Numbered from the stretch's first letter, positions 2,881 through 48,637 are shown. The stretch is DNA of 64,000 nucleotides from Alphaproteobacteria bacterium (GCA_024402715.1 JAKSTF010000001.1:78924-142923); one strand, 5' to 3'. Numbers and translations are program-made. The notes: a model not told the origin generated them from the sequence alone.

Positions 2881-2911
2881 AAAAAACACCGGCTTTTGCT
2901 GGTGTTTTTTT
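2881..2911. terminator. Bidirectional intrinsic terminator between convergent genes
   Basis: AAAAAACACCGGC-TTTT-GCTGGTGTTTTTTT: A-run, GC stem with one G-U pair, then T-run. Confidence 0.8.
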
Positions 2912-4475: not shown

Positions 4476-4670
4476 TTACCATCCATATATAGTTTTCGCA
4501 CAAAACAAAACGTGTTTTATACGAAATTATTGTTCTAATAACACAGTTCCTACATTCAATTAATCGATTTTTGAATGCAAAACCCCATTATTATATTTGG
4601 ATAGTACAAAATTGGTAAAAATAATACAACGATATATTTTTAAAGTAAAAACAAACAGATAAAGCTATAT

Positions 4671-5741: not shown

Positions 5742-5742
5742 A

Positions 5743-7386
5743 TTAATACACTCCTGGCCTGTCTAATAATCCAACCCAACGCTCCAATTCATCAACACCG
5801 ATAATTCCCTGTAACATTAATTCAGCAGCAGCTTCTTTCAAAGTACGCCCTTCCATTTCTTCTAACCAATATCGTACAGCACCATCTGTATCACCCATCA
5901 ATGCCAAACGCAAAAATTCACTGTTTGTAATAATAATTTCACCGGCTTTAATACGGCCAAATGTTCCAGTTCCATTACAATGTTCGCACCCTATACCCCG
6001 AACATACACCTGGCGTAATCCCAATTGACCATATGCATCCAACACACGTTTATATGCCGGATTTTCTGGATGTTCTATTAACCGTTGTCGACAATGGGGA
6101 CATAATTTTTTAAACAAACGCATTGATACCAAACCACGCATTAACGTTTCGTCTTTTAATTTAAATGCTTCTATACCTAAATCCAATAAACGTGTTAATG
6201 CAGCCATTGCAGAATTAGCATGCAATGTTGTCCAAACATTATGACCCGATAAAGCACCACGTACAGTCAATTCGGCAGCTGCCAATGTTCTGATTTCACC
6301 AACCATTAACGTATCCGGATCACTACGTAATGCCGCTGCCAATGCTTCTGTATATTTGTCTTCGCGTTGTTCTTCATTTGTTGTATTAACAACTGGCATT
6401 TGATGTGCCCCAAAAATCTTTTGTTCAACGGGGTTTTCCACCGTGATCAAATTTATTTCATAATTACGTTCCTTTAACATCATCGACATATTACGAACCA
6501 ATGTCGTTGATTTTCCCGAACTGGTTGGCCCGGCAACAATTATCAACCCAGTTGGAAATGACCGCAAACGCATTAATAATTTTTGTTCATATTCGCCAAA
6601 TTCTTGCTCTGTTTTAATACCTTCGGATGGATTATCGTATAACAAACGCATTACAACATAACGACTACCAAAGGCAACCGGATTAAATTGCATACGAATA
6701 CTTAAAATTCCTAATGGTAAATATAAATCTTTAGTACCACGTAATGGTGTACGCCCATCTTTTTGTGCAGATTGATATTCATTTTGTGCATAGTTTGCGT
6801 TTGACATATCAGCAGATGCAAACGCAGCACGAACAAACGATTCACCCCAACCCGCATTATATTCCAACACCGGTTGCATGCTTCCATCTATGCGAAAATA
6901 AATTGTTGTTTGATCTGCAACCTCTATATGTATATCAGACACTTGTTGGGCAGCCGCCTTGGCAATAATATCAACAAAATTTTTCTGCATTTGATTGTCA
7001 AAATCACGGCTATTACGTCCATGTCCACCCAAACGACTATCATACGTTTTATATATTGCAGATACCAATCCTAAATCAGAATAAAACGGTTTACGCATTG
7101 GTATACCACTGCGTATTAATAAATCAATAAATGCTAATACCCGCCCATCATATCTGTGCGTCCGTGAAACGATTAATTCCCCACCAGAAAAATACGCAAT
7201 AATCCCCTGGGTATCACGTGGCAATTCTTGACTTCCACCGGCCGCCGTTAACAAACGATTTCCATTTGAAAACAAATAATCAACAATGTCTTTGATATCG
7301 GCATTTTCCAACCCTGCAGGGACAGATGGGTGATCCGCGACTGAATCAACATTATTTTTTAATGTATTCTTTTTTGTAGTTTTCAT
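5743..7386 (-). CDS. GspE/PilB-family secretion/pilus-assembly ATPase (R64 PilQ-like)
   Basis: Walker A AGPTSSGKSTT, Asp-box/Walker B region DPDTLMVGEIRT, His box VWTTLHANSA, tetracysteine CPHC..(x)..CEHCNGTG. Confidence 0.9.
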   Translation of the reverse strand: MKTTKKNTLKNNVDSVADHPSVPAGLENADIKDIVDYLFSNGNRLLTAAGGSQELPRDTQGIIAYFSGGELIVSRTHRYDGRVLAFIDLLIRSGIPMRKPFYSDLGLVSAIYKTYDSRLGGHGRNSRDFDNQMQKNFVDIIAKAAAQQVSDIHIEVADQTTIYFRIDGSMQPVLEYNAGWGESFVRAAFASADMSNANYAQNEYQSAQKDGRTPLRGTKDLYLPLGILSIRMQFNPVAFGSRYVVMRLLYDNPSEGIKTEQEFGEYEQKLLMRLRSFPTGLIIVAGPTSSGKSTTLVRNMSMMLKERNYEINLITVENPVEQKIFGAHQMPVVNTTNEEQREDKYTEALAAALRSDPDTLMVGEIRTLAAAELTVRGALSGHNVWTTLHANSAMAALTRLLDLGIEAFKLKDETLMRGLVSMRLFKKLCPHCRQRLIEHPENPAYKRVLDAYGQLGLRQVYVRGIGCEHCNGTGTFGRIKAGEIIITNSEFLRLALMGDTDGAVRYWLEEMEGRTLKEAAAELMLQGIIGVDELERWVGLLDRPGVY

Positions 7387-7406
7387 CTGTCAGCATCCCA
7401 ATTATT

Positions 7407-8159
7407 TTAATCATGTTTTGCCCCAACATTTAATGATTGAATGTCATTATTTTCTGTATTAACAAATACAACACCATCATCTAATGAAATCGATTTTACT
7501 GTATAGCCATCTAAAACCTTACCTACACCAATTTTACGTTTTTGACCAGATATTAGATCTGTAATAGTTGCTTGCAACTGATTACCTGCACCAATTACAT
7601 TAATTAGTTTGTACCTTTCACTGAAAATAACGGATACATTTTCTTCAGCCTGTGCAGCTGTATTATCAACATGATGCTGTACGGTACTACTAGAAGATTT
7701 TAAATCATTTTCACGGGCCGCTAATGCTGCTTTTTCGTGTTCCAATTCTGCAACTTCGGCTTCTAATTTTGCACGTGCTGTCTCTATTTCTAATTGCTGT
7801 TGTTCAGCTTTGTCTGACAAATTATCAATTTCCATATGCAATTTAATTTTTTCAGCAGCTAATCTATCTAAATCCAGATCCAATTGGGCACGTTCTTTTT
7901 CCAACTGCATCAAAACTTTTTCCTGTTCTAAATTTGTAATTTGTTCAAACAAAGAACCATCTACCTTGTATTTTGATACAGCCTGAGCAGAAACGGATTC
8001 CATTTCAGCATCTACAGACGCATCCTCATTTTCATCAACGGCTGTTTCTGTAATTACAATTTCTTCATCCATAACATCTTCTGCATATGCATTTAAGTTA
8101 AAACAAAAAAATGCTACAACAATGGAATAAACAAAAATAAATTTTAAATTATTTTGCAT
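7407..8159 (-). CDS. Exported coiled-coil protein with a PilP/GspC-HR-like C-terminal beta domain (tentative)
   Basis: Signal peptide ..FNLNAYA|ED, acidic stretch, ~90-aa heptad-rich region (LEQEKVLMQLEKERAQLDLDLDRLAAEKIKL..), and C-terminal YKLINVIGAGNQLQATITDLISGQKRKIGVGKVLDGYTVKSISLDDGVVFV. Overlaps the upstream gene by 11 nt. Confidence 0.55.
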   Translation of the reverse strand: MQNNLKFIFVYSIVVAFFCFNLNAYAEDVMDEEIVITETAVDENEDASVDAEMESVSAQAVSKYKVDGSLFEQITNLEQEKVLMQLEKERAQLDLDLDRLAAEKIKLHMEIDNLSDKAEQQQLEIETARAKLEAEVAELEHEKAALAARENDLKSSSSTVQHHVDNTAAQAEENVSVIFSERYKLINVIGAGNQLQATITDLISGQKRKIGVGKVLDGYTVKSISLDDGVVFVNTENNDIQSLNVGAKHD

Positions 8160-9417
8160 AGATTATCACCTCATAGTTCCATGTACGATCTGTGACGTCC
8201 CATACGCTGCGCGTCATATAGACACCACTAAAATCATCAAAAATTTTCATAAATTGCATTGGCGCCAATTTGGATTCCACTGCAATCTCGACAACATTCA
8301 GCACAACCGTCTCGACACCATTTGTCAAAACATCAGATGTTACATCCACATCTACCGGCATTGCAGCAGATTGAAATGCTGTTCGCACAGCACGTGCTAC
8401 ACTGTCCGCATCACGTTCTTCAACAGAAGAATTTGTTGCTACCTGTGGTAACGCGACACGAACATTTACAGAATTTGGTGATTGTTCAACAACAAATGCC
8501 CCAGGAATTAATTCAGTGGCAATATCGTAAAAACTTGTTAATGTTCCAAATTGACGTGAAAAGGCGGCAATCGCATGTGTGGTATCACATTCAACAGAAA
8601 CTTGACGCCAACCATAAATTGATTGCATTAATAACCCAATTGCCCGATAACACATATCCGCCCGCAACGCCACATCTGGCAATTTATCATATGGCAAAAC
8701 GATTGGATCTGGTTCCGGAACGACTTCTTTGACTATTTCAAATTGTTCATCCAATTGTTTATTTTTCTCGTCAATTTGCCGATGATATTCTGCCGCCAAT
8801 TCCGGATCAATTTGCGAAATCTGTGGACGCGGCATTATCATTTGAATAATCGGTTCGTAAAATATCATCCAAAAACTAACACAAAAACCAATCATTAATA
8901 CAAATGACCACAAAAATGCTCTACCACGACTGATGGGCCGCAATTTTCCATGAACATTATTATGAATTAGATCATACAAATTATGTTCTGTTGCCCGCGG
9001 CATTCCCCATCCAGCCGGCGCAAACAAAGCCCCCCAATCAGGAATTTCAGATAACTTAAAATATTCAGCCCGTGCATCTTCTGCATGCGCAAAAATTGTA
9101 TCAGTTAAAATAACCCCATTACGAACAGCAAGCAAATAAAAACCATGCCCTGTATCAAACACCCCCAAAAAAGAATTATATTCTGTTAATGTATTAACAA
9201 TTTCTGCCGCGGCACTTGGCATTCCAACGCGATGCCCCATTCGTCGTGCCCCCAAGCCTAACATAGAATGATATTCTGTAAACAGGTTTAAATTTTTGTT
9301 TATTTTATACGCCAATGAACGTGCAAATGCACGTTGGTTACCCACCATCGCCATGGGTTGCCAAAACAATCCAACAGCGTATTTTTTTCGATTAATTGTA
9401 ATTACTTGTGCTGACAA
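8149..9417 (-). CDS. Bitopic inner-membrane pilus-assembly protein, R64 PilO / BfpC-like (tentative)
   Basis: 422 aa: cytoplasmic N-domain (INRKKYAVGLFWQP..), a single TM (AFLWSFVLMIGFCVSFWMIFY), and a ~220-aa C-terminal domain. It is the first gene of the four-gene string. The family call rests on architecture and synteny only. Confidence 0.5.
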   Translation of the reverse strand: MSAQVITINRKKYAVGLFWQPMAMVGNQRAFARSLAYKINKNLNLFTEYHSMLGLGARRMGHRVGMPSAAAEIVNTLTEYNSFLGVFDTGHGFYLLAVRNGVILTDTIFAHAEDARAEYFKLSEIPDWGALFAPAGWGMPRATEHNLYDLIHNNVHGKLRPISRGRAFLWSFVLMIGFCVSFWMIFYEPIIQMIMPRPQISQIDPELAAEYHRQIDEKNKQLDEQFEIVKEVVPEPDPIVLPYDKLPDVALRADMCYRAIGLLMQSIYGWRQVSVECDTTHAIAAFSRQFGTLTSFYDIATELIPGAFVVEQSPNSVNVRVALPQVATNSSVEERDADSVARAVRTAFQSAAMPVDVDVTSDVLTNGVETVVLNVVEIAVESKLAPMQFMKIFDDFSGVYMTRSVWDVTDRTWNYEVIIYAK

Positions 9418-13622: not shown

Positions 13623-14480
13623 ATGACTCTGATTGCACACGGTATTTTAGCCCTTAATAAATATATTAAAGAAAACAAACTGACAAATGCCCAAAAAAAA
13701 TTATCTAATGCCCAAAGGGCTGGAATGTCTGAGCAAGATCTGTCCCCCCTCAAAACGAATGTATTAACTGCTCGTCGCGAATTTTTTGATTCGAGAGATC
13801 TGCTTGAAAAATTAAAACGATTTGAGGGAAAAATTGATATATTTATGCCTCAAACAGGTAAACCATATGATGGCAATCCTTTTGCCTTAGGCCGAACAGT
13901 TGGTTATATTGTTCTGGCCATACCTGTGTTAACTGGCCTGCTAGCGTATGAGACAGTAAAGTTGGCCGCTAATAATGTAAAAGAAAAACAAATATACAAT
14001 AAAAAATTAAAAGAAGATGCCAAAATCAAAGCAGACGAAAAAGCAAAGCAGCTTGCCCAAGAAAAATTTGAAGAAACAGAAGAACTTAAAGAAAAACAAG
14101 AAATAACTATTTTAACAAAGGCCGTTTCAGAAGCAGATTTTATTGGGATTCGTAATGTGGATATACCAACCGATAAAACAGCTATTATTGTTGGTCTTGT
14201 TGATGAATACGGCAAAATTGCAGAAATTACTATGAAAGAAGGTAAAATGGTTTTATTTATGGATGACAATCCCCAATCAAAAATATTTTCTGCATTCTTT
14301 ATAGATCCAGAAACAGGTAATTTTGAAGAAATTGCAAGGGTTAAATCTTCGAGAGGAATAGATAAAATACGTTCTTCTATAATAACTCAAATCAGCAAAC
14401 AGGAAAAGAAACAGCAAGAACGTAAAAATGCAGAATTAAGGAACGAGCAAATTATGCACGCAATAAACCAACGACAATAA
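13623..14480 (+). CDS. Hypothetical single-pass membrane protein with a Lys/Glu-rich coiled coil
   Basis: 285 aa; TM VGYIVLAIPVLTGLLAY; charged helix KEKQIYNKKLKEDAKIKADEKAKQLAQEKFEETEELKEKQE. No recognisable family. Followed by a terminator. Confidence 0.6.
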   Translation: MTLIAHGILALNKYIKENKLTNAQKKLSNAQRAGMSEQDLSPLKTNVLTARREFFDSRDLLEKLKRFEGKIDIFMPQTGKPYDGNPFALGRTVGYIVLAIPVLTGLLAYETVKLAANNVKEKQIYNKKLKEDAKIKADEKAKQLAQEKFEETEELKEKQEITILTKAVSEADFIGIRNVDIPTDKTAIIVGLVDEYGKIAEITMKEGKMVLFMDDNPQSKIFSAFFIDPETGNFEEIARVKSSRGIDKIRSSIITQISKQEKKQQERKNAELRNEQIMHAINQRQ

Positions 14481-14484
14481 ATAT

Positions 14485-14510
14485 AAAAACCATCCAATCG
14501 GATGGTTTTT
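14485..14510. terminator. Bidirectional intrinsic terminator
   Basis: AAAAACCATCC-AATC-GGATGGTTTTT. Confidence 0.75.
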
Positions 14511-14598
14511 GTATGGTTATTTTTAAATTGACGATTACATATCACAAGATTAGAAAAATAAGGTTGTCGTGACTTTATTTGACATATTAGAGAACATT

Positions 14599-14823
14599 TT
14601 ATCTTTGTTTCTGCCCCATTGCGATATTAAACGTATTAACATCGCTAATCTTTATTCCATTTTTTATATTTTTTAATTCCAATTTGTCCTTTTCTAACCT
14701 AAGTTGCGCCCTACTGCATTCACTTACCGCAATGCCGGCCACAGCACTTAATATTATGATCCACAAACAACCATCCAACCTGAATGTGATTTTATTTTTA
14801 CCATTTACCTCATAATTTTGCAT
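14599..14823 (-). CDS. Small hypothetical membrane protein (74 aa)
   Basis: Single hydrophobic helix CLWIIILSAVAGIAV; RBS-like AAAGGA upstream of the ATG. No family recognised. Confidence 0.35.
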   Translation of the reverse strand: MQNYEVNGKNKITFRLDGCLWIIILSAVAGIAVSECSRAQLRLEKDKLELKNIKNGIKISDVNTFNIAMGQKQR

Positions 14824-15016
14824 TTTTAATCCTTTGTGGTATAGATTAGTATATCAATATACTTTTTCAAGCATATTCTTGTATTTCACTATTTATAACA
14901 TTTTAATGTTATGATTTTATATTTCTTTTATTCCACATTAAATTATATTATTTTCTGTAAAATATCATTGATAAAAATATTTATTACACTTCTTGAATTC
15001 GGAAAATTTAACTCTG

Positions 15017-15925
15017 TTAAACTAATCCTTTTCGTTCACAATTTATCATATCTACCCGGTATTGTGATTCTTTTTCATCTTTGTTTTTTATTTTTTGCCC
15101 ACCGATATTAAATAAAAATTTATCTCTTAAATTATTATTGGCCAGAAAACCATCCTCAACATGTATTACAGAATGTATTTCTAATTCTGTTAAACATTTA
15201 TTATTGTTCATAAACAGCCTAGCTATACGTTCTAAATTTGGCGCACAAACTTTTTTTACACTATCATTACAATTCATAAATCTGTACCCAACCTGTACTA
15301 ATTCTGGAAAATATAACTCTATTAAACGATTATTATAATACATAAAATCATTCTCGACTTGGATCAAATTTGGTAAAACCAATTCTATCAACTTGATATT
15401 TCTATACAAAAAATCATTACCAACGTATTTCAAATTTGGTAAATATAATTTTACTAAATCTGTATTACTGCTCATAAAATCATTACCAACCCGGATTAAA
15501 TTTGGCATATTTATTTTTATATCATTTTTATTGAAACGCAAAAATTCATTTTTTATTGTTGAAACTGATGGTAAATTTAATTCACGCAAACTGTTGTTAT
15601 GGCGTAAAAATTTATCACCAATATGCGTTACGGTTGGAAAATTTATCGCTGTTATTTTACCATCTTCAATATGAACAATTTCAACACCGTCTGCCAATAT
15701 TCCATTTTTATTTACTGTTACTTTTTTGTTTTTTATTTCTGTATTAAAAGCATCAATAAAACCATCATCCAAACCAGATGGATTTAATAATCGTTTTTCT
15801 TTATTATCCCATATAAAATAATCTAATACTGTTTGATTGTCTCGGTTTATTTCATGTATTTGACCATGTGATTCATAAAAATTTTCACCAAAATAAACAT
15901 TACATATCTCATAATTATATTTCAA
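15017..15925 (-). CDS. Leucine-rich-repeat protein (about 22-23-aa repeats L-x-L-P-N-L-x-x-V-G-N-x-F-L/M-x-x-N), possibly the C-terminal part of a split gene
   Basis: Repeats read NLPSVSTIKNEFLRFN / NMPNLIRVGNDFMSSNTDLVKLY / LPNLKYVGNDFLYRNIKLIELV / LPNLIQVENDFMYYNNRLIELY / FPELVQVGYRFMN.. The only available start is TTG, with no Shine-Dalgarno. Overlaps the upstream ORF by 11 nt in the +1 frame. Confidence 0.6.
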   Translation of the reverse strand: MKYNYEICNVYFGENFYESHGQIHEINRDNQTVLDYFIWDNKEKRLLNPSGLDDGFIDAFNTEIKNKKVTVNKNGILADGVEIVHIEDGKITAINFPTVTHIGDKFLRHNNSLRELNLPSVSTIKNEFLRFNKNDIKINMPNLIRVGNDFMSSNTDLVKLYLPNLKYVGNDFLYRNIKLIELVLPNLIQVENDFMYYNNRLIELYFPELVQVGYRFMNCNDSVKKVCAPNLERIARLFMNNNKCLTELEIHSVIHVEDGFLANNNLRDKFLFNIGGQKIKNKDEKESQYRVDMINCERKGLV

Positions 15926-16565
15926 GAATATTATCTTGAATTAACGTAAACCCAGCAGGCAAATTAATGTCTGTTAGTTGCCAATCAATATTGAACTTTG
16001 CCTTTAATGCTAAAGATAACCCAGATATTATTTCATCTGGATTACTGCCAAACGTATTATCTGGATTTTCAACAGTATGATTATATCTATTTTTTATTGA
16101 TATTCGTCCACCAGCTTTTAACATTTGAATTGATATAACACTGGTACCATACTCATCTTGACGTGCTGGATTTGGTGACGGTTTAATTGAATCAATATTA
16201 TATTTAACCGCATTTACTATATAAAATTTTTCAAATCGGTGCGGATCTGTAAATGTACATAATTCTTCATGCGATCTAAAATATTTTTGTATCGCATTTT
16301 GTTTTTCCAACGTATCTGCATATTCAACAAATTCATACCCTGCCCGATGTAACAATTCAAATGGATCATTTGTATCTGTTGGTTGTGTCGTAAATACACG
16401 CAAAGAAGAAACATATGGCAATATGTCTTGTGCATCTCGTTCCGATTTACCCGCATATTTAATAATATCAACAATATTTGGTAAATCTAAAACCGGTCGC
16501 AAAACACGTGCAAACTTTTCACCATTTTGTTTCTTTATTATTTCATATACTGACTTTTTTACCAT
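15915..16565 (-). CDS. Hypothetical protein (216 aa), possibly the N-terminal part of the LRR gene
   Basis: Clean ORF with a GGGGGAAAACGAGG-type RBS region upstream of ATG 16565. No family recognised. Confidence 0.55.
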   Translation of the reverse strand: MVKKSVYEIIKKQNGEKFARVLRPVLDLPNIVDIIKYAGKSERDAQDILPYVSSLRVFTTQPTDTNDPFELLHRAGYEFVEYADTLEKQNAIQKYFRSHEELCTFTDPHRFEKFYIVNAVKYNIDSIKPSPNPARQDEYGTSVISIQMLKAGGRISIKNRYNHTVENPDNTFGSNPDEIISGLSLALKAKFNIDWQLTDINLPAGFTLIQDNILEI

Positions 16566-19164: not shown

Positions 19165-21402
19165 ATGGCAGAAAAGTTCAAGATTTTATCCGTTGGTGGT
19201 TCTGGCAAAGGGCTGAATATTTTCAAATCCAGCGCATACAAAGAACATGAAAAAAAACCGATGGCATCGTTATTTTGGTCAATACGATGGACGATCGGAA
19301 TATGGTTGGTATGTGCTATGGCATTTTGCTTGTCGTTTATATTTGAACATATTTGGCGATACGGTTGGTCACCTGCAACCGCACATTGGACACAAATTTA
19401 TTTACAGCATATGTTTTCAACCATGGGTTTATCTGTTATGGCAGAGATTCCCGATTGGTTTATTCGTACAGTTTTGCGTACAGATATAATGTGTATTATT
19501 CCACTGTTTCCAATAATTGCATTTTATATGATGGCTGATGCCACAATTACCAAAGAATTTAACCCATATGGGAATGATAAATTTTCTGAAAAATCATCTA
19601 ATAAGGCCACCAAAGAAGATATTGAAAAAATGGGATTATTTAAGGGCTTTATGATGGTATTGGGATATTTTAAAGGCAAACCTTTGATGATGCCAGAAAC
19701 ATTATCCGCATTATGTTTAGCCCCTCCGGGGACCGGTAAAACCGCCGGGGTAGTAATTCCAACAATTTTGGATTGTGATGCTTCTTCAATGATAATAAAC
19801 GATCCCAAACCCGAATTAAAACAAATTACATCGGCATACCGTGCAACCATAGGACCGGTGTTTATTATGAATTGGGCGGGTCAGGACGATCCAGAAAATG
19901 GAATCTATTACCCTTCATGGAATCCATTATCACCAGAACATATTCCTTTTAACCAGGAACAACGCGATTTGTATGTTGATTCAATGTGCAAAATTTTGGT
20001 TCAAGAAAGTAAAAATGATCCGCATTGGTCAAATACAGGGCGTGCTGGATTGGCTGGTATGATTCAATTTATGGTATCAAAAATTGAGCACGCACGTGCA
20101 GATGATTATTTTTATGCCAGACTTGATTCCGGAACATTTGATGCCGAAGATGCCGCAGTATTACAGGAATATTACCAACAGATGAGTTTTAGTGGTAATT
20201 CCAATGCATACGCCGCCATGGCCCAATTACAAGATGGCAAATTAAATACTGTAAATTATTTACATATTGGAACATGGGCCCATATTCCACAACGTTGGTT
20301 GGGCAAAGAGGCATCGTTATCATTAATTTTAGATTGGTTAACAGAAACCCAATTGCAGCTGGCGGCAGAATTGGAAGAACGTCGCCGTCAAGGTGATCAA
20401 ACTGTTATGATGGCCGATCCAATGCGTGACGTGTTAGAAAATGCAGTAAACGAAGCCCGGGTATATGACTATTCCCGCCGCGCAATCCAAGAATTAACAC
20501 AATTAGCAAATACCCCAGGTCAAGAACGTGGTTCTATTATTTCAACGATTATGGCGGGTTTGGCAATATTTAGAAATGCCGCTGTTCGTAATCGTACCAG
20601 TCATTCTGATTTTCATTTTGCAGATTTACGTGGTATGCTTGATCCCAGAGACGGCAAGATTAAACCTGTTACTGTTTACCTGTCAATTAATATGGTTGAT
20701 GCCCAGGCGTTAAATCCAATTACGGGTATATTTATTGAACTGATGTCTAATTTCCTGTTGGCAAATGCCCCAGATAAAATTGGAACAACCGGTGAAAAAA
20801 TGGGGCCGTATCCCGTATTATTCGTATTGGATGAAATGCCTAAAATGCAAAAATTGGACGCCGTTATACAGGGCCCCGATTTGGGACGTGGTCAAAAAAT
20901 TTCATATTTGATTATTGGTCAGGATATTCACCAAATTCAAGAACGGTATGGTGCAGATGCAGCCTCAACAATTATATCAACAACCGCAGCAAAAATCGTA
21001 TTACGTCAAAATGATCCAACAACAGCCAAGACATTTAGTGATATGATGGGCTATAAAATGAAAATAACAACTGTAAAGGGCGCAGACGGCAAAGATAAAG
21101 ACGAGACAAAAGAAGAATTGTTATATACCCCAATGGATATTATGAAATTAGCAAAAGGTAAACAGATTGTCATTTTTCAAGGATACTATAATCGCCCGAT
21201 CGAAGCAGATCAAGAATTGCATTTCTTGGGTAAAAATGATGTTCAAAAGAAATTGGCTGCTAAGATTGCAATGGGAGAATCAGCCCCAATGCCAGAATTT
21301 TTGATTCCATCACATTTTTCGGCATTGGGGTATACAGGGACGCCCAAAGTGTACGATCCAACAACAAAAGAAATTAAAATTTTGGATACGGTTACACAAT
21401 AA
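19165..21402 (+). CDS. virD4: Type IV secretion coupling protein (VirD4/TraG family)
   Basis: Two N-terminal TM segments, Walker A CLAPPGTGKTAGVVIPTIL, Walker B VLFVLDEMPKM, and IIGQDIHQIQERYG, as in T4CPs. 745 aa; the start may be M33. Confidence 0.85.
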   Translation: MAEKFKILSVGGSGKGLNIFKSSAYKEHEKKPMASLFWSIRWTIGIWLVCAMAFCLSFIFEHIWRYGWSPATAHWTQIYLQHMFSTMGLSVMAEIPDWFIRTVLRTDIMCIIPLFPIIAFYMMADATITKEFNPYGNDKFSEKSSNKATKEDIEKMGLFKGFMMVLGYFKGKPLMMPETLSALCLAPPGTGKTAGVVIPTILDCDASSMIINDPKPELKQITSAYRATIGPVFIMNWAGQDDPENGIYYPSWNPLSPEHIPFNQEQRDLYVDSMCKILVQESKNDPHWSNTGRAGLAGMIQFMVSKIEHARADDYFYARLDSGTFDAEDAAVLQEYYQQMSFSGNSNAYAAMAQLQDGKLNTVNYLHIGTWAHIPQRWLGKEASLSLILDWLTETQLQLAAELEERRRQGDQTVMMADPMRDVLENAVNEARVYDYSRRAIQELTQLANTPGQERGSIISTIMAGLAIFRNAAVRNRTSHSDFHFADLRGMLDPRDGKIKPVTVYLSINMVDAQALNPITGIFIELMSNFLLANAPDKIGTTGEKMGPYPVLFVLDEMPKMQKLDAVIQGPDLGRGQKISYLIIGQDIHQIQERYGADAASTIISTTAAKIVLRQNDPTTAKTFSDMMGYKMKITTVKGADGKDKDETKEELLYTPMDIMKLAKGKQIVIFQGYYNRPIEADQELHFLGKNDVQKKLAAKIAMGESAPMPEFLIPSHFSALGYTGTPKVYDPTTKEIKILDTVTQ

Positions 21403-36119: not shown

Positions 36120-36467
36120 TTAATGAAATGCAAGGTATTTTTTGCCCATGTGTGATTTTGGCAATGGGGTTATGCGTGCCAACACACGCACCATTTCTGT
36201 AGACATATCTATATTTTCTATATCCAAAATATAATGCGGTCGCCCACCACGATATGGTATATCCGAATCCGGTGATATATCATATAACATAAACACAGAT
36301 AACGTTTCTGGTATTTGTTTTACGTAAACAGTATCATCACATATCAGTAATACAGGTCGTTCATCACAATACAGCATATATTCACCGAACATTTTACGAT
36401 ATGAGATATCACCAGCATCTGAAACCTGATCAGCAACAAATTGAACAAAATCTGCACTGGATGACAT
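36120..36467 (-). CDS. TfoX N-terminal-domain protein
   Basis: FVQFVADQVSDAGDISYRKMFGEYMLYCDERPVLLICDDTVYVK matches the TfoX_N pattern (..rkMFGg..ly.dg..f.li.dd.lYlK). Confidence 0.7.
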   Translation of the reverse strand: MSSSADFVQFVADQVSDAGDISYRKMFGEYMLYCDERPVLLICDDTVYVKQIPETLSVFMLYDISPDSDIPYRGGRPHYILDIENIDMSTEMVRVLARITPLPKSHMGKKYLAFH

Positions 36468-42189: not shown

Positions 42190-42222
42190 AAAAAATATCC
42201 CAAAAAATTGGGATATTTTTTT
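42190..42222. terminator. Bidirectional terminator closing the virB3-virB4 operon and uvrD
   Basis: AAAAAATATCCCA-AAAAAT-TGGGATATTTTTT. Confidence 0.8.
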
Positions 42223-42931
42223 ATTTATTATTATAATACTTTCGTTTCTCAACCTCATCATACATTTTAGATACTTCATTATTAAGTGTATCCATACATG
42301 ATTCTATGGATTCTTTATTGTTTTTTAAATTATTACATTGTGTTTCACATTCTTTTACAGTATCACCCGCTTTGCTGGCTGCCATTTTACAATCTGTTAA
42401 CATTTTTTTAAATAATACACTTTTGTTAACATTTTTCGCATTTATATATGTTTGCATTTTATCTATGTTTCTTTTTAAACATTTTGCCGCATCTTCAAGA
42501 CTATATGCCGAACAATTTTCGAATTGTTGCATTATATTATTTGCGTTTTTCGAATCGGATGTTTCGGCACCGTTGGCCTCTAATTTAGCCTGTAAAACCG
42601 ATTTTTCCAATTGTGCCTTTAAACGACGAAGGGTGGCCTCTAAAAAATCGTATTGTTTTTTCATTTGTTGTGTAACAACGGTTGTTTTTAAAGCAACAAC
42701 TTCATTCATTAATTCGCGTTCTGTGAACGTTGTAACATTTCCTGTATTACCGATATTATAAACATGCGTACTGCATATCGCCAATGTTGGATTTATATAT
42801 GAATTATTATCGTCATCACAACCGGTTTTGTTTTCTGCATTTACCGGTGAATAAATACAAAAACACAACAAAATCACCGCAAAAAATTTGCTTACAACAG
42901 ATTTATAAAAATTCATTTTATATTGCGACAT
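42221..42931 (-). CDS. Secreted helical protein, 8 Cys in the mature part; last gene of the virB3-virB4 operon
   Basis: Signal peptide ..CFCIYSPVNA|EN; coiled-coil segment QQMKKQYDFLEATLRRLKAQLEKSVLQAKLEA. Its start overlaps the upstream stop by 1 nt. No family recognised; the size and helicity are VirB5-like, but this is only a guess. Confidence 0.65.
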   Translation of the reverse strand: MSQYKMNFYKSVVSKFFAVILLCFCIYSPVNAENKTGCDDDNNSYINPTLAICSTHVYNIGNTGNVTTFTERELMNEVVALKTTVVTQQMKKQYDFLEATLRRLKAQLEKSVLQAKLEANGAETSDSKNANNIMQQFENCSAYSLEDAAKCLKRNIDKMQTYINAKNVNKSVLFKKMLTDCKMAASKAGDTVKECETQCNNLKNNKESIESCMDTLNNEVSKMYDEVEKRKYYNNK

Positions 42932-44682
42932 TATTTAAAATCTTTTTGTATTTTCCCATTACATCTATCAAATGCATCTTTATCTTTAAAAAATTTACTA
43001 CAATCACATTCTCCATTTGTATAAAATCCACCTGCTCCTTCACAAAACTTTTGTTCATATACATTCTTTCTAATAATGCTATTATTTTTATCACATTTAT
43101 ATATGCTGTAATCTAAACTAGATTCATTAGAATCATAACAAAAACACTGTCCCAAATATTCAGACCATATAGCATCATTCTTTGCCGGTTGAATTTCCAC
43201 TATTTCATAATTATCCTTATCGTCGTACACAAGTTCTTTTTCAACTATTTTTTCCTCACAAAGATTTCTTCTATTCTCCATTATAGAACTATCATTTGCA
43301 ATATAATCATGCGAACTTTTTAAACCAGACTCGCTAATACAAATTTTGTCTGGTAATTTTTTTGATGCCGTATATTTTAATAAATTTCCATAATCATGTG
43401 ATGTTATTGCACAATATTTTACAATATCATCATTTTCCAATTTTTTATTGCGGCCTGAACGGATGCTGTCCTGTTCAATGATACGTTTTAACGTTTCAAT
43501 ATCTATATTTGATGCCTTTCTGCGGTTTTTAAATAATGTGGATGTTTCCAGGGCCTCTGACGCGCAGGCAATACGAACCTCGCCACCACTGCCATTTTCT
43601 GGGTTTAACCAACTTGTTTTTACATCATCTTCGTTATTTAATAATTTAATTAATCTACAATTTCCTTCTTTCACTTCTTCTTCAATTTTTTTACCTGCAA
43701 CGACATTAGAACACACATATTCGCCCCATACATTGCATGTGCCATTTAACATTAAATAAATATTCGTTAAATCAACACCAACCGTTTGTGCCAATGTCAA
43801 TGCATCGTATAATTCATCCAAAACGTTTTCATACGGATCAAAAAATTCCATTGCATTTTGTTTAAATTTTTTCACACGTTTTGGTCCGGTACAATTACTG
43901 CCCGTTGAATCACAGCCCGCATAATCAAATGTTGTTTTCATTACGGCCTTTAACGTTTTTAATTGCGTTTCGGCATTTTCTATTTTTGATAAAATCTGGC
44001 CTGAAATTTGTTCACGAATCAAAACATCTGATGAAACACCATTTTGTGCCGCATTAATCTGTGAATCTGATACATTTATTGGATTTGTTGCCTGGGCAAC
44101 GGCCGCCGCCTGGGCCTGGGCGGCAACACGTTTTTGTTCTTCTAATGCGTTTTGCAATTGTGAAACGGTTGCCTGATTTTGTGCTGCCATTTCTTGCTGC
44201 ATTTGTTGCATCTGCTGTTGCATTTGTTGAATTTGTTGTGCACTTTGTTGGGCCGCCATTTGTGCCGCAGAATTTTGTGCATCTGCCGCCATTTGATTCG
44301 CACGTGCTGTGGAATTTGCAACCAATTGTGCTGCAATATAATTAACTAATTCATCGCCATATTTTTGACATTCTTCTTTGGATGCAACACATCCGGCAAC
44401 AATTGATGATGCCACAGACATATCTGTACACCCACCGGATGAACATTTTGGTGTCGCACAACGCATAATTATCGCATTACAATTTCCAAAATTTGCCTCT
44501 GGTGCGGTGGTGGCAGAACTGCGGCCGCTGACCATTGCATTCCAATTATTACCAATTCCTAAACCATTATTACTGTTAAATGCAGTCAAATTATCACCGG
44601 CCGTCGTTGGCACAGGCGACGCATGTACACCATACGTGGCCAACGCAAATGCAATTGGTAAAATTTTTGGCAATGATATCAT
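42931..44682 (-). CDS. Secreted 583-aa protein with 22 cysteines and a Gln/Ala-rich coiled-coil tract
   Basis: Signal peptide ..ALATYGVHA|SP; AAQMAAQQSAQQIQQMQQQMQQMQQEMAAQNQ; Cys clusters at both ends (..GNCNAIIMRCATPKCSSGGC.. and ..KFCEGAGGFYTNGECDCSKFF..RCNG). No TM segments. Confidence 0.7.
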   Translation of the reverse strand: MISLPKILPIAFALATYGVHASPVPTTAGDNLTAFNSNNGLGIGNNWNAMVSGRSSATTAPEANFGNCNAIIMRCATPKCSSGGCTDMSVASSIVAGCVASKEECQKYGDELVNYIAAQLVANSTARANQMAADAQNSAAQMAAQQSAQQIQQMQQQMQQMQQEMAAQNQATVSQLQNALEEQKRVAAQAQAAAVAQATNPINVSDSQINAAQNGVSSDVLIREQISGQILSKIENAETQLKTLKAVMKTTFDYAGCDSTGSNCTGPKRVKKFKQNAMEFFDPYENVLDELYDALTLAQTVGVDLTNIYLMLNGTCNVWGEYVCSNVVAGKKIEEEVKEGNCRLIKLLNNEDDVKTSWLNPENGSGGEVRIACASEALETSTLFKNRRKASNIDIETLKRIIEQDSIRSGRNKKLENDDIVKYCAITSHDYGNLLKYTASKKLPDKICISESGLKSSHDYIANDSSIMENRRNLCEEKIVEKELVYDDKDNYEIVEIQPAKNDAIWSEYLGQCFCYDSNESSLDYSIYKCDKNNSIIRKNVYEQKFCEGAGGFYTNGECDCSKFFKDKDAFDRCNGKIQKDFK

Positions 44683-44768
44683 ATTCTCTCTTAATCTATA
44701 TAATAAAATATTATCATAATTTTCTGTTACATGAAAGATAAAAAATTATTATCAAAAAAAACGTAAAA

Positions 44769-45389
44769 CTATAAAATACATCTTTTTAATGCGGCCCCTG
44801 TATCATTAATATCAACACGACGATTACGTATTTCTTCGGCAGCCTTTATTTTTTGCATAATCAATATTAAATCTGGATGTGAACGCAAATCTTGGTTCAT
44901 TTTATCAACCGCCGTATCAATATCTGTGGCATCACGAACAAATATTGGTGTTATTGAATCGGATGCAATTTGTATTGATTTTTTTAAATCATTATTAAAT
45001 TCATCCATAATCGACATGTATGCACGTATATGTTCATCTTCGTGTGTTAATATTGCGTTATATGAACATGTATCTGGTATATGTCGTATATCAATTTGAA
45101 CCAAAAAATCACTGTATCCTACAGATGCATCTACACTTTTTAATGAAACACAATAACCATCTTCAATTTGTGTAATATCGGCAATTATTTCATAATTATC
45201 GGTCATTGTTGCAATTACATTTCCATGTAATAAATCCATTTCACGTAATGGTTGAACAACCTGTTTTGTCCATACCGGGGTTATTATATTTACATTTGGA
45301 TGTAATTTATACGCTAAACAATCATCTGATGCATTTGAAACAAATGGTAAAAAAAACATGAATAATATCAATATTTTTGACCAAAACAT
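44769..45389 (-). CDS. Secreted 206-aa protein with an HExxH motif (candidate zincin, DUF922-like?)
   Basis: Signal peptide MFWSKILILFMFFLPFVSNA|SDD; motif AILTHEDEHIRAY. Starts 8 nt after the virB4 stop. Confidence 0.65.
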   Translation of the reverse strand: MFWSKILILFMFFLPFVSNASDDCLAYKLHPNVNIITPVWTKQVVQPLREMDLLHGNVIATMTDNYEIIADITQIEDGYCVSLKSVDASVGYSDFLVQIDIRHIPDTCSYNAILTHEDEHIRAYMSIMDEFNNDLKKSIQIASDSITPIFVRDATDIDTAVDKMNQDLRSHPDLILIMQKIKAAEEIRNRRVDINDTGAALKRCIL

Positions 45390-45397
45390 TTTTATTA

Positions 45398-47824
45398 TTA
45401 CAGGTCACCTGCCCCCTGTTTTTTCAAATATTCTGAAACAAATGCATTACCGTATTGTGAATACAATTCTTCTGCCAATAATACAGATGGACGGCCTGAT
45501 TCAAATAATCGTAACATATTCCCCAAACCACCCAATTCCGTATTCAATATTACAGATTCACCGGTTACAGGACGAGATAACAACACCGCACGTTTCAAAT
45601 TCGGATATGCACGTCCACGTATAAAATCCATTTCCAACGGATTTAAATTCCAATGTGAATAATCATTTGTATCCGCTGCAGGATTCCTGAAAAACATTAC
45701 CGTTTGAATTTGCCCACGTGCAACATCACCTATGCCCAATTTATCTAAAATATTTGCACGTTGGAATGCCACCATATATGCCTGACGATTTTTTCGCCCC
45801 TCTTGTAAACCAGCAATAAAATTATCACGAAACATTTTATTTTCTAACATTGGTGCCGTTTCATCAATCATTATCAGTGATGGGTTACCACCGGATACTG
45901 TAATATTGTTTATTCTGTGTAATATATACGATAACACTGCTGGGGCCAATGTTTCATCCTGTAAAACATCCGTAAAATCAAATGTTGTTAATCGTGATTG
46001 TAAATCCAGTGTATCATTTTCTTCATTAAACATATCCCCATATTGTAATGGATCAATCCATTTTTTTAATTGTGGTCTGACATTGCCAGATGCAGAAAAA
46101 CAACTTTCCCATAAATTTTTTAATAATCTGTCTTTTTCAGATAAATAATCAAAATTAACAGATACTGCACGTGCAATTTCATCAGCAGATTCTGAGTCCG
46201 TTGCACCCGTAATTATTGAAAACCAACGACGCAAAAATGCACGATTTGCCGCCGTATCCGGCATTTTTAATGGATTTAAACGGGTTTGAAATGATATACC
46301 AGATTCATTTTTTTCACGTCCCTGCATGGTGATATATTTACCGCCAACCGCCAATGTAAATATTTCAGCCCCATGATTACGATCAAAGAAAAATGCCTTT
46401 AATTTTGGATGACGTAATGACTGTGAAATTAAAAAACTGAACAATGTTGTTTTACCGCCGCCTGTTGGTCCAATTGTCATTGTATGTCCAACAGCAGCCG
46501 GTTTATCTGATACATGAAATTGAAATTGATATGGCGTACCCTGGGCTGTAGGAAAAACAACCAATGGTCCTGATCCCCAATCAGAATTTGCGACACCACG
46601 TGGTTGTGAATCCATTGGTATACTGGTGGCAGCCGTTTTTGACAACATTTTGAAACTGCGTGGAAATGTATCAAAACCCGGAATTAATGAAAACCATGAA
46701 ACTTTTGCTGCATATGTTTCAACAATCGGTGATACACCATATGATGCAGATATTTTTTTAAATTCATCAACGTACTTATTTAATTCATCAATATTGTCTG
46801 CATACAAAACAAATAAAGGGTAATAATTAACCAAATTTTGATTTCCAACAATATTTTCATCCATTGCGTTTTTTGCAACATCAATTTGTTGTTCTGTTGT
46901 TTCAAAATTATCATCATTTGCAGTCGCACGTCGTTGACGTAAAACATTTTGAATATCTGCTGTTCCCATTATATGAAATGCATTCATACAAATCATTTCT
47001 GTTTGTATTGTTGAAATTGCCGAAAAGAATTCTTCATCCATATAATCTGGGGATATTTTAAATGATATCATTGCAGAAAATGAATTTTTATCACCACTGG
47101 TATATTGAACATAACCATTTTTTAAAAATTTAATATCATCAACAGTTGTAACATCTGCAATACTGTTATCACATACAATGGGCTGTGGTTTTGTAATTGG
47201 TGATAAAATCCGACCAAAAAAACGTGCCATATTATCTGTTGAATTATTTTTCAATAACATCGGTTTATATGCTGCCAAAACAGATTCAATATAATTCCCA
47301 TATTGATTCAGTTTTTCACGTGAATTAGAACCATAAACAGATAAAACAATATAATAATCATTTAAAAATATCTGCAAACCACGTGTTTGCCATTTATCAT
47401 ATATTTTTTGTAATACAGGTTGATCAAATTCATAATCTGTATTTTCATCAGATGCATTACGAACAGTAAAAAAACGAATTATTACATTCGGATCACGAAT
47501 TTGATTAAATAAACTGGCACGTAAATCCAAAAATTTTTCGTGTGCTGTTGGATTTTGCATACTTGTTTGTATACCTGCAACACGATAAACACGCACCAAT
47601 GCACCATTAATCAATTGTAACGAATTATCATTGTATACAGTATTAAATGGTAAATACTGAGAATAACTACCATATCCAAATTTTGGCAAAATACGCCGTG
47701 TTAAAACAGGTAAATATATCATCAACGCAATAAAAACCAATATGACTGCCATAGATAAAACAAGCATCGTCATCGGAAATCCACTACCTGCAAAGTATTC
47801 AAAAAAATTATTCATGTTATGCAA
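45398..47824 (-). CDS. virB4: Type IV secretion ATPase VirB4/TrbE family
   Basis: 808 aa with an N-terminal TM; Walker A TIGPTGGGKTTLFSF; Walker B-like PSLIMIDETAPML. Overlaps virB3 by 8 nt. Confidence 0.9.
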   Translation of the reverse strand: MHNMNNFFEYFAGSGFPMTMLVLSMAVILVFIALMIYLPVLTRRILPKFGYGSYSQYLPFNTVYNDNSLQLINGALVRVYRVAGIQTSMQNPTAHEKFLDLRASLFNQIRDPNVIIRFFTVRNASDENTDYEFDQPVLQKIYDKWQTRGLQIFLNDYYIVLSVYGSNSREKLNQYGNYIESVLAAYKPMLLKNNSTDNMARFFGRILSPITKPQPIVCDNSIADVTTVDDIKFLKNGYVQYTSGDKNSFSAMISFKISPDYMDEEFFSAISTIQTEMICMNAFHIMGTADIQNVLRQRRATANDDNFETTEQQIDVAKNAMDENIVGNQNLVNYYPLFVLYADNIDELNKYVDEFKKISASYGVSPIVETYAAKVSWFSLIPGFDTFPRSFKMLSKTAATSIPMDSQPRGVANSDWGSGPLVVFPTAQGTPYQFQFHVSDKPAAVGHTMTIGPTGGGKTTLFSFLISQSLRHPKLKAFFFDRNHGAEIFTLAVGGKYITMQGREKNESGISFQTRLNPLKMPDTAANRAFLRRWFSIITGATDSESADEIARAVSVNFDYLSEKDRLLKNLWESCFSASGNVRPQLKKWIDPLQYGDMFNEENDTLDLQSRLTTFDFTDVLQDETLAPAVLSYILHRINNITVSGGNPSLIMIDETAPMLENKMFRDNFIAGLQEGRKNRQAYMVAFQRANILDKLGIGDVARGQIQTVMFFRNPAADTNDYSHWNLNPLEMDFIRGRAYPNLKRAVLLSRPVTGESVILNTELGGLGNMLRLFESGRPSVLLAEELYSQYGNAFVSEYLKKQGAGDL

Positions 47825-48107
47825 TTAATCTCCCTGGGATTTTTTGTTTAAACAGTTGGAATTTTGATGCCAAAATCTGTCCCAATTGTGGATCACGTTT
47901 CGCAAATGGCATCAGTATTAAATGAACACATATAACTGATAACAAAAACCAAAGTGGGTTTGGAGCTTCATGCCATAATATTAATTCCGATACCATAACA
48001 ATAATAAATACCAAAAACTGAACCGCAAAATTCAACACCGCCAACGTGTACGGTACAAAAAATATACGTGCTGGATTTGCCAATGCTTTCAGTACTGGTT
48101 GTCGCAT
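47817..48107 (-). CDS. virB3: Type IV secretion protein VirB3/TrbD family
   Basis: 96 aa; LKALANPARIFFVPYTLAVLNF.. plus two hydrophobic helices and ..AKRDPQ.., as in VirB3. Translationally coupled to virB4. Confidence 0.8.
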   Translation of the reverse strand: MRQPVLKALANPARIFFVPYTLAVLNFAVQFLVFIIVMVSELILWHEAPNPLWFLLSVICVHLILMPFAKRDPQLGQILASKFQLFKQKIPGRLIA

Positions 48108-48139
48108 AATTGTAAAATCCCCCCCCTGTTAATGTTTGA

Positions 48140-48168
48140 ATTATACCAATTTCGACATTTTTCAACAA
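48140..48168 (-). promoter_or_regulatory. Candidate promoter of the virB3 operon
   Basis: On the minus strand, TTGTTG (48168-48163), 17 nt, TATAAT (48145-48140). A G8 tract (48126-48119) lies 11 nt before ATG 48107. Confidence 0.4.
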
Positions 48169-48379
48169 GCATAAAAATTTTTTTCAAAATTTGGTTAATT
48201 ATGTAAAAAAAGATGTATTTTTTAACATGTTCATAAAACATATATTTTTTTAACAAATTTAATATAACCACCGTAAATTCTAGAAAAAATTGTTGAAAAA
48301 CTGTTTACAAATAAATGAAAAGTATTTTCAACAAAATAAACAATCCCAACAATAACAACAAAAAAAATATAATAATAAT

Positions 48380-48407
48380 TTGATTTTTTATAAAAAGCGT
48401 TTATAAT
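48380..48407 (+). promoter_or_regulatory. Candidate promoter of rpmJ
   Basis: TTGATT (48380-48385), 16 nt, TATAAT (48402-48407). RBS AAAAGGA lies before ATG 48431. Confidence 0.5.
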
Positions 48408-48430
48408 GCCAAGGCAAAAAGGATCCAAAT

Positions 48431-48565
48431 ATGAAATTTTTAAGTTCTTTAAAGGCTTGGAAAAAACGCGGTAATGTTAAACAAATTCGCCGTGGAAAAC
48501 AGGTTATTTTAATCGACCCTGAAAATCCTAAATTCAAGGCCAAACAGGGGTTCAAAAAGAAATAA
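48431..48565 (+). CDS. rpmJ: 50S ribosomal protein L36 (cysteine-free, rickettsia/YkgO-like type); not in the ORF track because it is under 60 aa
   Basis: Own translation: MKFLSSLKAWKKRGNVKQIRRGKQVILIDPENPKFKAKQGFKKK. It matches the MK..sSLK..K.R......v.RrG...vi.k.NpkfKakQG pattern of alphaproteobacterial L36. Confidence 0.85.
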   Translation: MKFLSSLKAWKKRGNVKQIRRGKQVILIDPENPKFKAKQGFKKK

Positions 48566-48612
48566 TAGATCATATATTATATATTGTTATAATATTGATT
48601 TTGTCTTTTATG

Positions 48613-48637
48613 CCGGCACGTTAGTGTCGGTTTTTTT
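48613..48637 (+). terminator. Intrinsic terminator after rpmJ
   Basis: CCGGCAC-GTTA-GTGTCGG (one G-U pair) followed by TTTTTTT. Confidence 0.7.

Follow-up and report, generated by a model that had tools for sequence, protein, structure and literature searches.

A conserved virB3-virB4-orf206 cassette beside a separate pair of cysteine-rich protein genes in a gut alphaproteobacterium

The genes considered here, virB3 and virB4 of a type IV secretion system (T4SS) together with three genes that follow them, lie in a stretch of 64,000 nucleotides (nt) of an alphaproteobacterial genome (GCA_024402715.1, JAKSTF010000001.1:78924-142923), the whole of which is termed the window below. All five open reading frames (ORFs) are co-directional on the minus strand, and a first-pass annotation, which had placed them correctly, drew them as a single unit and proposed that the last three, orf206, orf583 and orf236, make up an undescribed T4SS module. 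What was seen in the sequence is correct, but the unit was delimited wrongly: two modules stand side by side rather than one conserved unit. The conserved unit comprises three genes, virB3-virB4-orf206, with a near-invariant putative promoter of its own, and in it orf206 occupies the place held elsewhere by virB5 or virB6, while being homologous to none of them. We favour the explanation, at a probability of roughly 0.6, that two transcription units have become adjacent in one sublineage of Enterousia. The first would consist of a promoter, virB3, virB4 and orf206, an old set of three genes in Rs-D84, a gut order with reduced genomes into whose virB3-virB4 operon orf206 was recruited, and the second of orf583 and orf236, encoding cooperating secreted cysteine-rich proteins under a strong extended -10 promoter of their own.

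The virB3-virB4-orf206 cassette

Conservation was assessed in 80 virB4 loci, which are the matches of a VirB4 query against one genome per species and all of which come from metagenome-assembled genomes labelled Candidatus Enterousia or uncultured gut Alphaproteobacteria/Rickettsiales; linkage was scored by tblastn of the five window proteins against these loci, one of which (L001) is a near-twin of the window with 99% identity. Enterousia has been placed in the GTDB order Rs-D84, a group of widespread uncultured gut bacteria with genomes of about 0.75-1.0 Mb, and its genomes are described as devoid of the tricarboxylic acid cycle, respiration and standard transporters, such that obligate symbiosis with, or parasitism on, other cells has been proposed; secretion and VirB genes go unmentioned in that account (PMC12306168).

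The three genes are contiguous in 80 of the 80 loci, virB3 being found in every one, with median gaps of 1 nt between virB3 and virB4 and of 3 nt between virB4 and orf206. What follows orf206 is far less constant. At least 45 loci have a convergent gene there, often past a strong hairpin and a T run, and in the remaining loci the next gene is variable (rfb genes, ychF, ABC-F, a lipoprotein gene). The cassette is kept in L122, where orf206 is 36% identical to that of the window, and likewise in L124 and L125 (GCA_964514455.1, 27% guanine plus cytosine, GC), in which the identities fall to 57% for VirB4, 49% for VirB3 and 24% for orf206 and the flanks, with genes for an S11 peptidase and CTP synthase, are entirely different. 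In a further locus (L126:1-1058) two tandem orf206 paralogues, 31% and 66% identical to the window protein, stand immediately after virB4, the accessory gene having been duplicated locally. Nothing else available argues as strongly for a functional tie of orf206 to VirB3 and VirB4 as this persistence of the cassette in the face of change on both sides.

The first two genes are identified by profile matches. virB3 (47817..48107, minus strand) encodes 96 amino acids (aa) with two or three hydrophobic segments (residues 15-49 and 48-70); the product matches PF05101 above the Pfam cut-off (E 8.9e-8, 32.8 bits against 23.9), and the gene adjoins virB4, as expected of the family. The ATPase gene virB4 (45398..47824, minus strand) yields 808 aa when read from a TTG codon, and its product has an N-terminal transmembrane segment, a CagE_TrbE_VirB domain (PF03135, E 1.1e-11, 45.5 bits against a cut-off of 21) and, as read from the translation, intact Walker A (GPTGGGKT) and Walker B (IMIDE) motifs, which together make it a member of the VirB4/TrbE/CagE ATPases. 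It is a divergent member, because its scores lie far under the equivalog cut-offs (TIGR00929, E 5e-108, 362 bits against a subfamily cut-off of 643 bits). The nearest solved relative in the PDB is TrwK of R388 (E 2e-34), and the protein is not of the F type (E 1.5e-8 for TraC-F as against 5e-108 for VirB4_CagE). The 8-nt overlap that had been reported between virB3 and virB4 exists if the TTG start is used; homologues start at an ATG three codons later, and with this probable true start, at 47815, the overlap gives way to a 1-nt gap after the virB3 TAA. The start of orf206 lies 8 nt past the TAA stop of virB4, as had been annotated.

Upstream of virB3, at 48140..48169 on the minus strand, is a putative operon promoter composed of a -35 element, TTGTTG (48168-48163), a 17-nt spacer and an extended -10 element, TGGTATAAT (48148-40). 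The element CTTGTTGAAAAnTGTTGAAATTGTTATAAT recurs about 30-40 nt before virB3 in 67 of 69 related loci, and the match is unique in the window, where the chance expectation is 0 and no second copy was found; we infer promoter function from this conserved sequence. As the first-pass annotation had stated, no virB2 precedes virB3, the region being taken up instead by the promoter and by a divergent gene for a type-B ribosomal protein L36 (rpmJ/ykgO-like, about 48432-48566, plus strand, identified by reading the translation), whose terminator lies at 48612-48631. A conserved 61-aa minus-strand ORF in this region is accounted for as the antisense shadow of the L36 gene. That small ORF had prompted the idea of an RNA gene upstream of virB3, which was dropped, the Rfam search being negative. 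The virB3-rpmJ intergenic region (48108-48431) also contains TGTTGAAAA or its complement three times within some 170 nt (48159, 48291 and 48325), and the related repeats TTTTCAACA and TTTTAACAA are kept upstream of virB3 across loci; repeats of this type may be a candidate regulator binding site common to the divergent virB3 and rpmJ promoters.

The orf583-orf236 pair

The first gene of the pair, orf583 (42931..44682, minus strand), encodes a secreted coiled-coil protein with 22 cysteines and a glutamine content of 23% across residues 100-230, and the second, orf236 (42221..42931, minus strand), a secreted helical protein with ten cysteines, two of which fall within the signal peptide and eight in the mature protein. 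The genes overlap by one nucleotide, 42931. These features were correctly described at the outset, as were the HExxH motif of orf206 and the Sec-type signal peptides of all three proteins, each of which has a single N-terminal hydrophobic segment and no further transmembrane helix, cleavage being judged from sequence.

The linkage of this pair to the T4SS genes is another matter. The two genes follow the cassette only in L001 and L002 and are absent from 78 of the 80 loci, so that the five-gene order expected of a single unit is not kept in relatives, an outcome that the first-pass annotation had itself named as counting against its proposal; in the genome of L003 some 90 kb separate the pair (locus L081) from virB4. 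Scanning metagenomes with the orf583 family gave 32 loci, none of which has virB3, virB4 or orf206 in its flanks (within 10 kb), and in all 27 of those with downstream sequence an orf236 homologue follows the orf583 homologue. The families are of very different size (1085 homologues of orf583, 48 of orf236), and every member is unnamed and without a domain. In one locus (L094:9725-12289) orf583-like and orf236-like sequences are fused in a single ORF of 854 aa, the orf236 part of which has no signal peptide, a natural fusion arguing that the two proteins act together. L115 also has a fused ORF, of about 855 aa, and single large ORFs occur in L103, L104, L105/L106 and L114.

The spacer between orf206 and orf583 (44683..44768, minus strand) has the 86 nt first reported and indeed contains no hairpin, its RNA structure being not significant (z -0.25). 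It does contain a putative promoter, with a T-rich tract, an extended -10 element, TGATAATAT, at 44716-44708, and then AAGAGAGAATATG. Inspection of 16 regions upstream of orf583 homologues, those of the window and of L002 among them, revealed the same arrangement in all 16 (a T-rich tract, TGnTAnAAT, then AAGAGAGA-ATG), and 14 of them come from loci without nearby virB genes. In many unlinked loci a terminator hairpin stands immediately 5' of the pair. The conserved motif, which we infer to be a promoter, and the upstream terminators together argue that the pair is its own transcription unit. Downstream, both strands carry a bidirectional intrinsic terminator (42190..42221) between orf236 and a convergent uvrD-like helicase gene, consisting of a perfect 14-base-pair palindromic stem, a 4-nt loop and adjoining A and T runs that provide U runs on both strands; its folding energy is about -16 kcal/mol and its z about -3.5 on either strand, in agreement with the terminal hairpin first described.

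A single operon would be expected to have one promoter, no promoter or terminator within it, and linkage retained in relatives, and with a conserved promoter motif inside the spacer and linkage to virB4 in two of 80 loci the five genes do not answer to this description. It could still be argued that they form one T4SS module, in which the three secreted proteins replace VirB5, VirB6 and VirB8-11 as a periplasmic or surface tip, an adhesin or a cell-wall set. The genes are co-directional with no hairpin between orf206 and orf583 in the window, all three products are secreted and none has a known function, and canonical VirB5-11 were not found in the window or within ±10 kb of virB4 in the 80 loci. 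Against this stand the two linked loci out of 80, the 32 of 32 metagenome loci in which the pair is away from virB, the pair's own conserved promoter motif, and the lack of TraN, VirB5 or VirB1 similarity by sequence or fold; the comparative data largely refute the proposal, and we consider it quite improbable. What survives of the suggested T4SS module is orf206, which is undescribed, secreted and locked to virB3-virB4 in 80 of 80 loci. According to the two-unit explanation, the pair would have come to lie, in this genome and in its closest relative, between orf206 and the uvrD terminator, its position beside the cassette being presumably a chance of genome rearrangement, and read-through from the first unit is then possible, if incidental.

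The AlphaFold2 (AF2) model of orf583 is mediocre, with a predicted local distance difference test (pLDDT) value of 62.5, and is dominated by long helices (103-166, 218-255 and 270-300); neither Foldseek with this model (none at E<=0.001, TM-scores <=0.23) nor sequence-profile searching returned a PDB match, and orf236 has no Pfam or PDB sequence-profile match. Two candidate identities for orf583 were set aside. A TFIIA match, seen in 38 of 44 family members, is an artefact of the glutamine-rich low-complexity sequence. TraN was matched in Pfam by 0 of 44 members and in neither the PDB profile nor the Foldseek search, the fold comparison with TraN being a weak one because the model reaches a pLDDT of only 62.5.

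Recurrent neighbours of the pair are further cysteine-rich secreted proteins without a Pfam domain, of about 1040 aa with 36 cysteines, 711-973 aa with about 49 and about 450 aa with 15, as encoded at L081:2778-5891 (36), L081:10866-12218 (15) and L098:2933-5533 (49), and a whole repertoire of cysteine-rich envelope proteins seems to be encoded by these bacteria. The second unit would thus be grouped with other cysteine-rich envelope or surface proteins, apart from the T4SS, and orf583-orf236 most likely specifies an envelope or surface structure of two components, probably an abundant one. The two proteins accordingly leave the T4SS picture and may be redefined as a separate conserved, probably highly expressed envelope pair.

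orf206 and its possible functions

The third gene of the cassette, orf206 (44769..45389, minus strand), encodes a secreted protein with four cysteines and an HExxH motif, HEDEH at residues 116-120, within a predicted helix spanning 108-145. Its 594 close homologues include none that is named and none with a Pfam domain, and a profile search of 1.8 billion representatives retrieved 432 relatives at E<=1e-3. The family comprises secreted proteins of about 200-230 aa, many distant relatives having 220-235 aa, from diverse Proteobacteria. No Pfam or NCBIfam family matches orf206, NCBIfam being without a model for it, and informative names for orf206, orf583 and orf236 are absent from public sources. 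Nine residues (C24, G56, C80, C108, H116, E117, H120, D193 and C204) are invariant in 40 members with 17-45% identity, and the same nine in 76-77 of 77 virB4-linked homologues; HExxH itself is present in 126 of 127 full-length members, and distant members carry a C-terminal CxxW. The invariant D193 is a candidate for a third metal ligand.

The AF2 model of orf206 is confident (pLDDT 90.2) and begins with a signal helix, continues with a sheet of four strands that includes a long hairpin (57-98) and with the long helix 108-145 bearing HExxH, and ends in three helices. Of the attributes of a zincin, HExxH on an active-site helix is thus present, whereas a significant profile match or a zincin fold was not found. 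The classical T4SS components are likewise not recognisable. VirB5/TrbJ/TraC was matched by neither orf206 nor orf236 in Pfam, NCBIfam and PDB profiles (nor, for orf206 only, in Foldseek). As had been argued from the start, none of the three secreted proteins fits VirB6, which has at least five transmembrane helices, or the bitopic VirB8 (with an NTF2-like periplasmic domain) or VirB10 (with a beta-barrel one), for which there is no profile match (nor, for orf206, a fold match) and whose cytoplasmic N-terminus contrasts with the signal-peptide-like N-termini with AxA-type sites seen here. The SLT domain of VirB1-type lytic transglycosylases is matched by none of them, and no similarity to VirB1, VirB5, VirB7 or TraN models emerged from Pfam, PDB sequence profiles or Foldseek (orf206 and orf583). 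Altogether, homology of orf206, orf583 or orf236 to VirB5, VirB6, VirB8-11 or TraN was not found, and PDB sequence-profile searches for the three proteins returned coiled-coil or apolipoprotein noise only.

It might nevertheless be supposed that orf206 is a structural homologue of VirB5 or VirB8 that has diverged extremely and in which HExxH is incidental, since it resembles both proteins in coming right after virB4, in having about 200 aa and in starting with a signal or anchor. The HExxH, the aspartate and the four cysteines are, however, invariant throughout the family, including its T4SS-unlinked members, and neither Foldseek of the pLDDT-90 model nor PDB profiles return VirB5/TraC or VirB8, which makes this supposition extremely improbable.

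We regard orf206 instead as a secreted protein of an unnamed family and, on the evidence of its motifs, its gene context, the confident model and the weak zincin matches of distant members (given below), as a plausible new T4SS-associated periplasmic metallohydrolase. The protein would be exported to the periplasm by the Sec pathway, probably held by two disulfides, and would most likely act as a metal-dependent (HExxH plus Asp) hydrolase serving the VirB3/VirB4 machine. Its favoured task would be the local remodelling of the cell wall or envelope, as a functional stand-in for VirB1; as a second choice it could process a T4SS component or substrate.

Several results weigh against this assignment or against the separation of the two units. 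In the window there is no terminator between orf206 and orf583, so that the five genes may be co-transcribed here. The remaining T4SS was not located: apart from a VirD4-type gene, considered below, no other VirB gene occurs among the window ORFs, and VirB6 and VirB8-11 were found neither within ±10 kb of virB4 in the 80 loci nor on contigs overlapping the window ends, the short Logan contigs extending the low-coordinate end barely. The orf206 model has no fold match, zincin or other, in the PDB or BFVD (Foldseek, none at E<=0.001, TM-scores <=0.23), and sequence-profile searches of the PDB gave no structural relative. Matches to DUF922 (PF06037; 4 of 40 distant members, best E 0.0048) and to the eCIS_core/DUF4157 zincin (PF13699; 3 of 40, best E 0.0014) are sub-threshold. 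Distant genes of the family stand alone, with no T4SS context, in free-living Proteobacteria (in L087 by corA, and on a Microvirga chromid), and when 72,556 plasmids were searched by tblastn with orf206 and a distant relative, the only matches were two on chromids, again with no T4SS context; the family being alone in free-living bacteria and nearly absent from plasmids, a captured general periplasmic role is possible. Finally, the sole family member of the 127 without HExxH, P0406 (456 aa), has HExxQ. In this distant member a Sel1 repeat and a PG_binding_1 domain (E 1.5e-14) are joined to the orf206-like domain, a fusion that, as a single case in an HExxQ variant, is weak and is not relied on.

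From the solitary distant members and from the virtual absence of the family from plasmid T4SS loci it could be concluded that orf206 is a periplasmic enzyme of general housekeeping (a protease, for instance, or a peptidase acting on peptidoglycan) that is carried along as a hitch-hiker in the virB3-virB4 operon of a compact genome, without any role specific to the T4SS. Such an enzyme would not readily explain why the cassette is intact despite changed flanks and VirB4 divergence to 57%, or why the tandem duplicate stayed in place, and the close spacing of virB4 and orf206 (about 3 nt, or an overlap) implies that the two are translationally coupled. We therefore hold the hitch-hiking enzyme to be a possible but somewhat unlikely alternative.

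A different role again would be that of a substrate or effector exported by Sec (a toxin of the zincin type, or a protease that modifies the host), which the T4SS would release from the periplasm by a route like that of pertussis toxin and which would act on the partner cell of this probably parasitic bacterium. orf206 evolves faster than VirB4 (24-99% as against 57-99% identity) while keeping the catalytic signature, it is duplicated in L126, its distant relatives show the weak matches to the toxin-type eCIS_core zincin, and the lifestyle proposed for Rs-D84 is partner-dependent (PMC12306168). On the other side, genes for the outer-membrane T4SS channel were not found, the presence of VirD4 suggests cytoplasmic substrates, and the family also occurs in free-living bacteria without a T4SS, so that an effector appears improbable. 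The preferred assignment as a metallohydrolase acting alongside VirB3 and VirB4 makes orf206 a concrete candidate for a new T4SS accessory enzyme, and the protein family thereby paired with the T4SS is unnamed, of no solved fold, and marked by a metalloenzyme signature.

Other T4SS genes and known systems

The only further T4SS gene of the window encodes a VirD4/TraG-type coupling protein of 745 aa (19165..21402, plus strand), which stands alone, flanked by housekeeping genes, 25 kb from virB3-virB4. It matches PF02534 (E 1e-50), PF12696 (E 5e-20) and PF10412 (E 2e-17), and its best NCBIfam match, below the cut-off, is the Firmicutes CD1115 family (2.6e-40) rather than proteobacterial VirD4. 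The conserved cassette and the stand-alone VirD4 imply that part of a T4SS is kept under strong selection, and the system is either scattered, as in the rvh system, or truly minimal. The latter would mean that Rs-D84 possesses a minimal diderm T4SS of VirB3, VirB4 and VirD4 plus orf206 as a zincin-like periplasmic subunit invented in this lineage, with no canonical VirB2 or VirB5-B11, which we judge unlikely. If true, it would represent a new minimal T4SS architecture in an obligately partner-dependent gut bacterium exchanging material with other cells, and orf206 would be a dedicated envelope-breaching enzyme or a secreted effector.

The window contains other features of interest. A type IVb-pilus-like cluster by lpxC/lpxK (2910-9417, minus strand), which recurs in many of the 80 loci, comprises a PilO-like gene (8149-9417, minus, PF06864), a PilP-family gene (7407-8159, minus, TIGR03021, just below cut-off) and genes for a GspE/PilB-type ATPase (5743-7386, minus) and a GspF/PilC-type platform protein (4671-5741, minus), as well as one for a secreted protein of 521 aa with a faint match to the candidate phyla radiation (CPR) pilus protein PamR. 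The gene at 36120-36467 (minus strand) specifies a small TfoX N-terminal domain protein, TfoX being a family of competence regulators; the pilus cluster and T4SS ATPases are encoded in the same genome. The stretch lowest in GC (14001-16000, 0.279 as against about 0.36) includes an ORF (15017-15925, minus strand) for a BspA-type leucine-rich-repeat protein (PF13306), and a similar leucine-rich-repeat protein adjoins the orf583-orf236 pair in L081.

Of the known systems, the rvh T4SS of Rickettsiales is organised in scattered islands, with the order virB3-virB4a-virB6a-e and no virB5. The present arrangement is similar in that a reduced-genome alphaproteobacterium has a virB3-virB4 island among housekeeping genes with virD4 elsewhere (25 kb away here), in that virB3 and virB4 are without a neighbouring virB2 or virB5, and in that the gene behind virB4 tends to be duplicated, as in L126. 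It differs in that this gene encodes a soluble secreted HExxH protein and not a polytopic VirB6, that virB6 and virB8-11 were not found within ±10 kb in the 80 loci, and that VirB4 scores far under the equivalog cut-offs. With the P-type systems, VirB of Agrobacterium and Trw of R388 (virB1-virB11), the cassette shares homologous VirB3 and VirB4 and the translational coupling of their genes, whereas the operon described here is without VirB1, B2 and B5-B11 and ends after one novel gene.

Cell-wall hydrolases associated with T4SSs include the VirB1 lytic transglycosylases and the LytM metallopeptidase domain of the Gram-positive PrgK. Like these, orf206 is a secreted hydrolase-like protein encoded within a T4SS operon, and one distant member has PG_binding_1; unlike them, it has no SLT, CHAP or M23 domain, its HExxH chemistry and fold are unrelated, and any peptidoglycan activity is hypothetical. 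With DUF922 and eCIS_core/DUF4157 it has in common an HExxH on a long helix after a beta-sheet, but orf206 itself matches neither, and the family has a signature of its own in the four cysteines and the aspartate, with CxxW in distant members. The F-type TraN, an outer-membrane mating-pair stabiliser of about 600 aa with 22 conserved cysteines, resembles orf583 in length, in the number of cysteines and in the signal peptide, whereas orf583 is mainly a glutamine-rich coiled coil, is unlinked to T4SS genes in relatives and occurs here beside a VirB4 that is not F-type.

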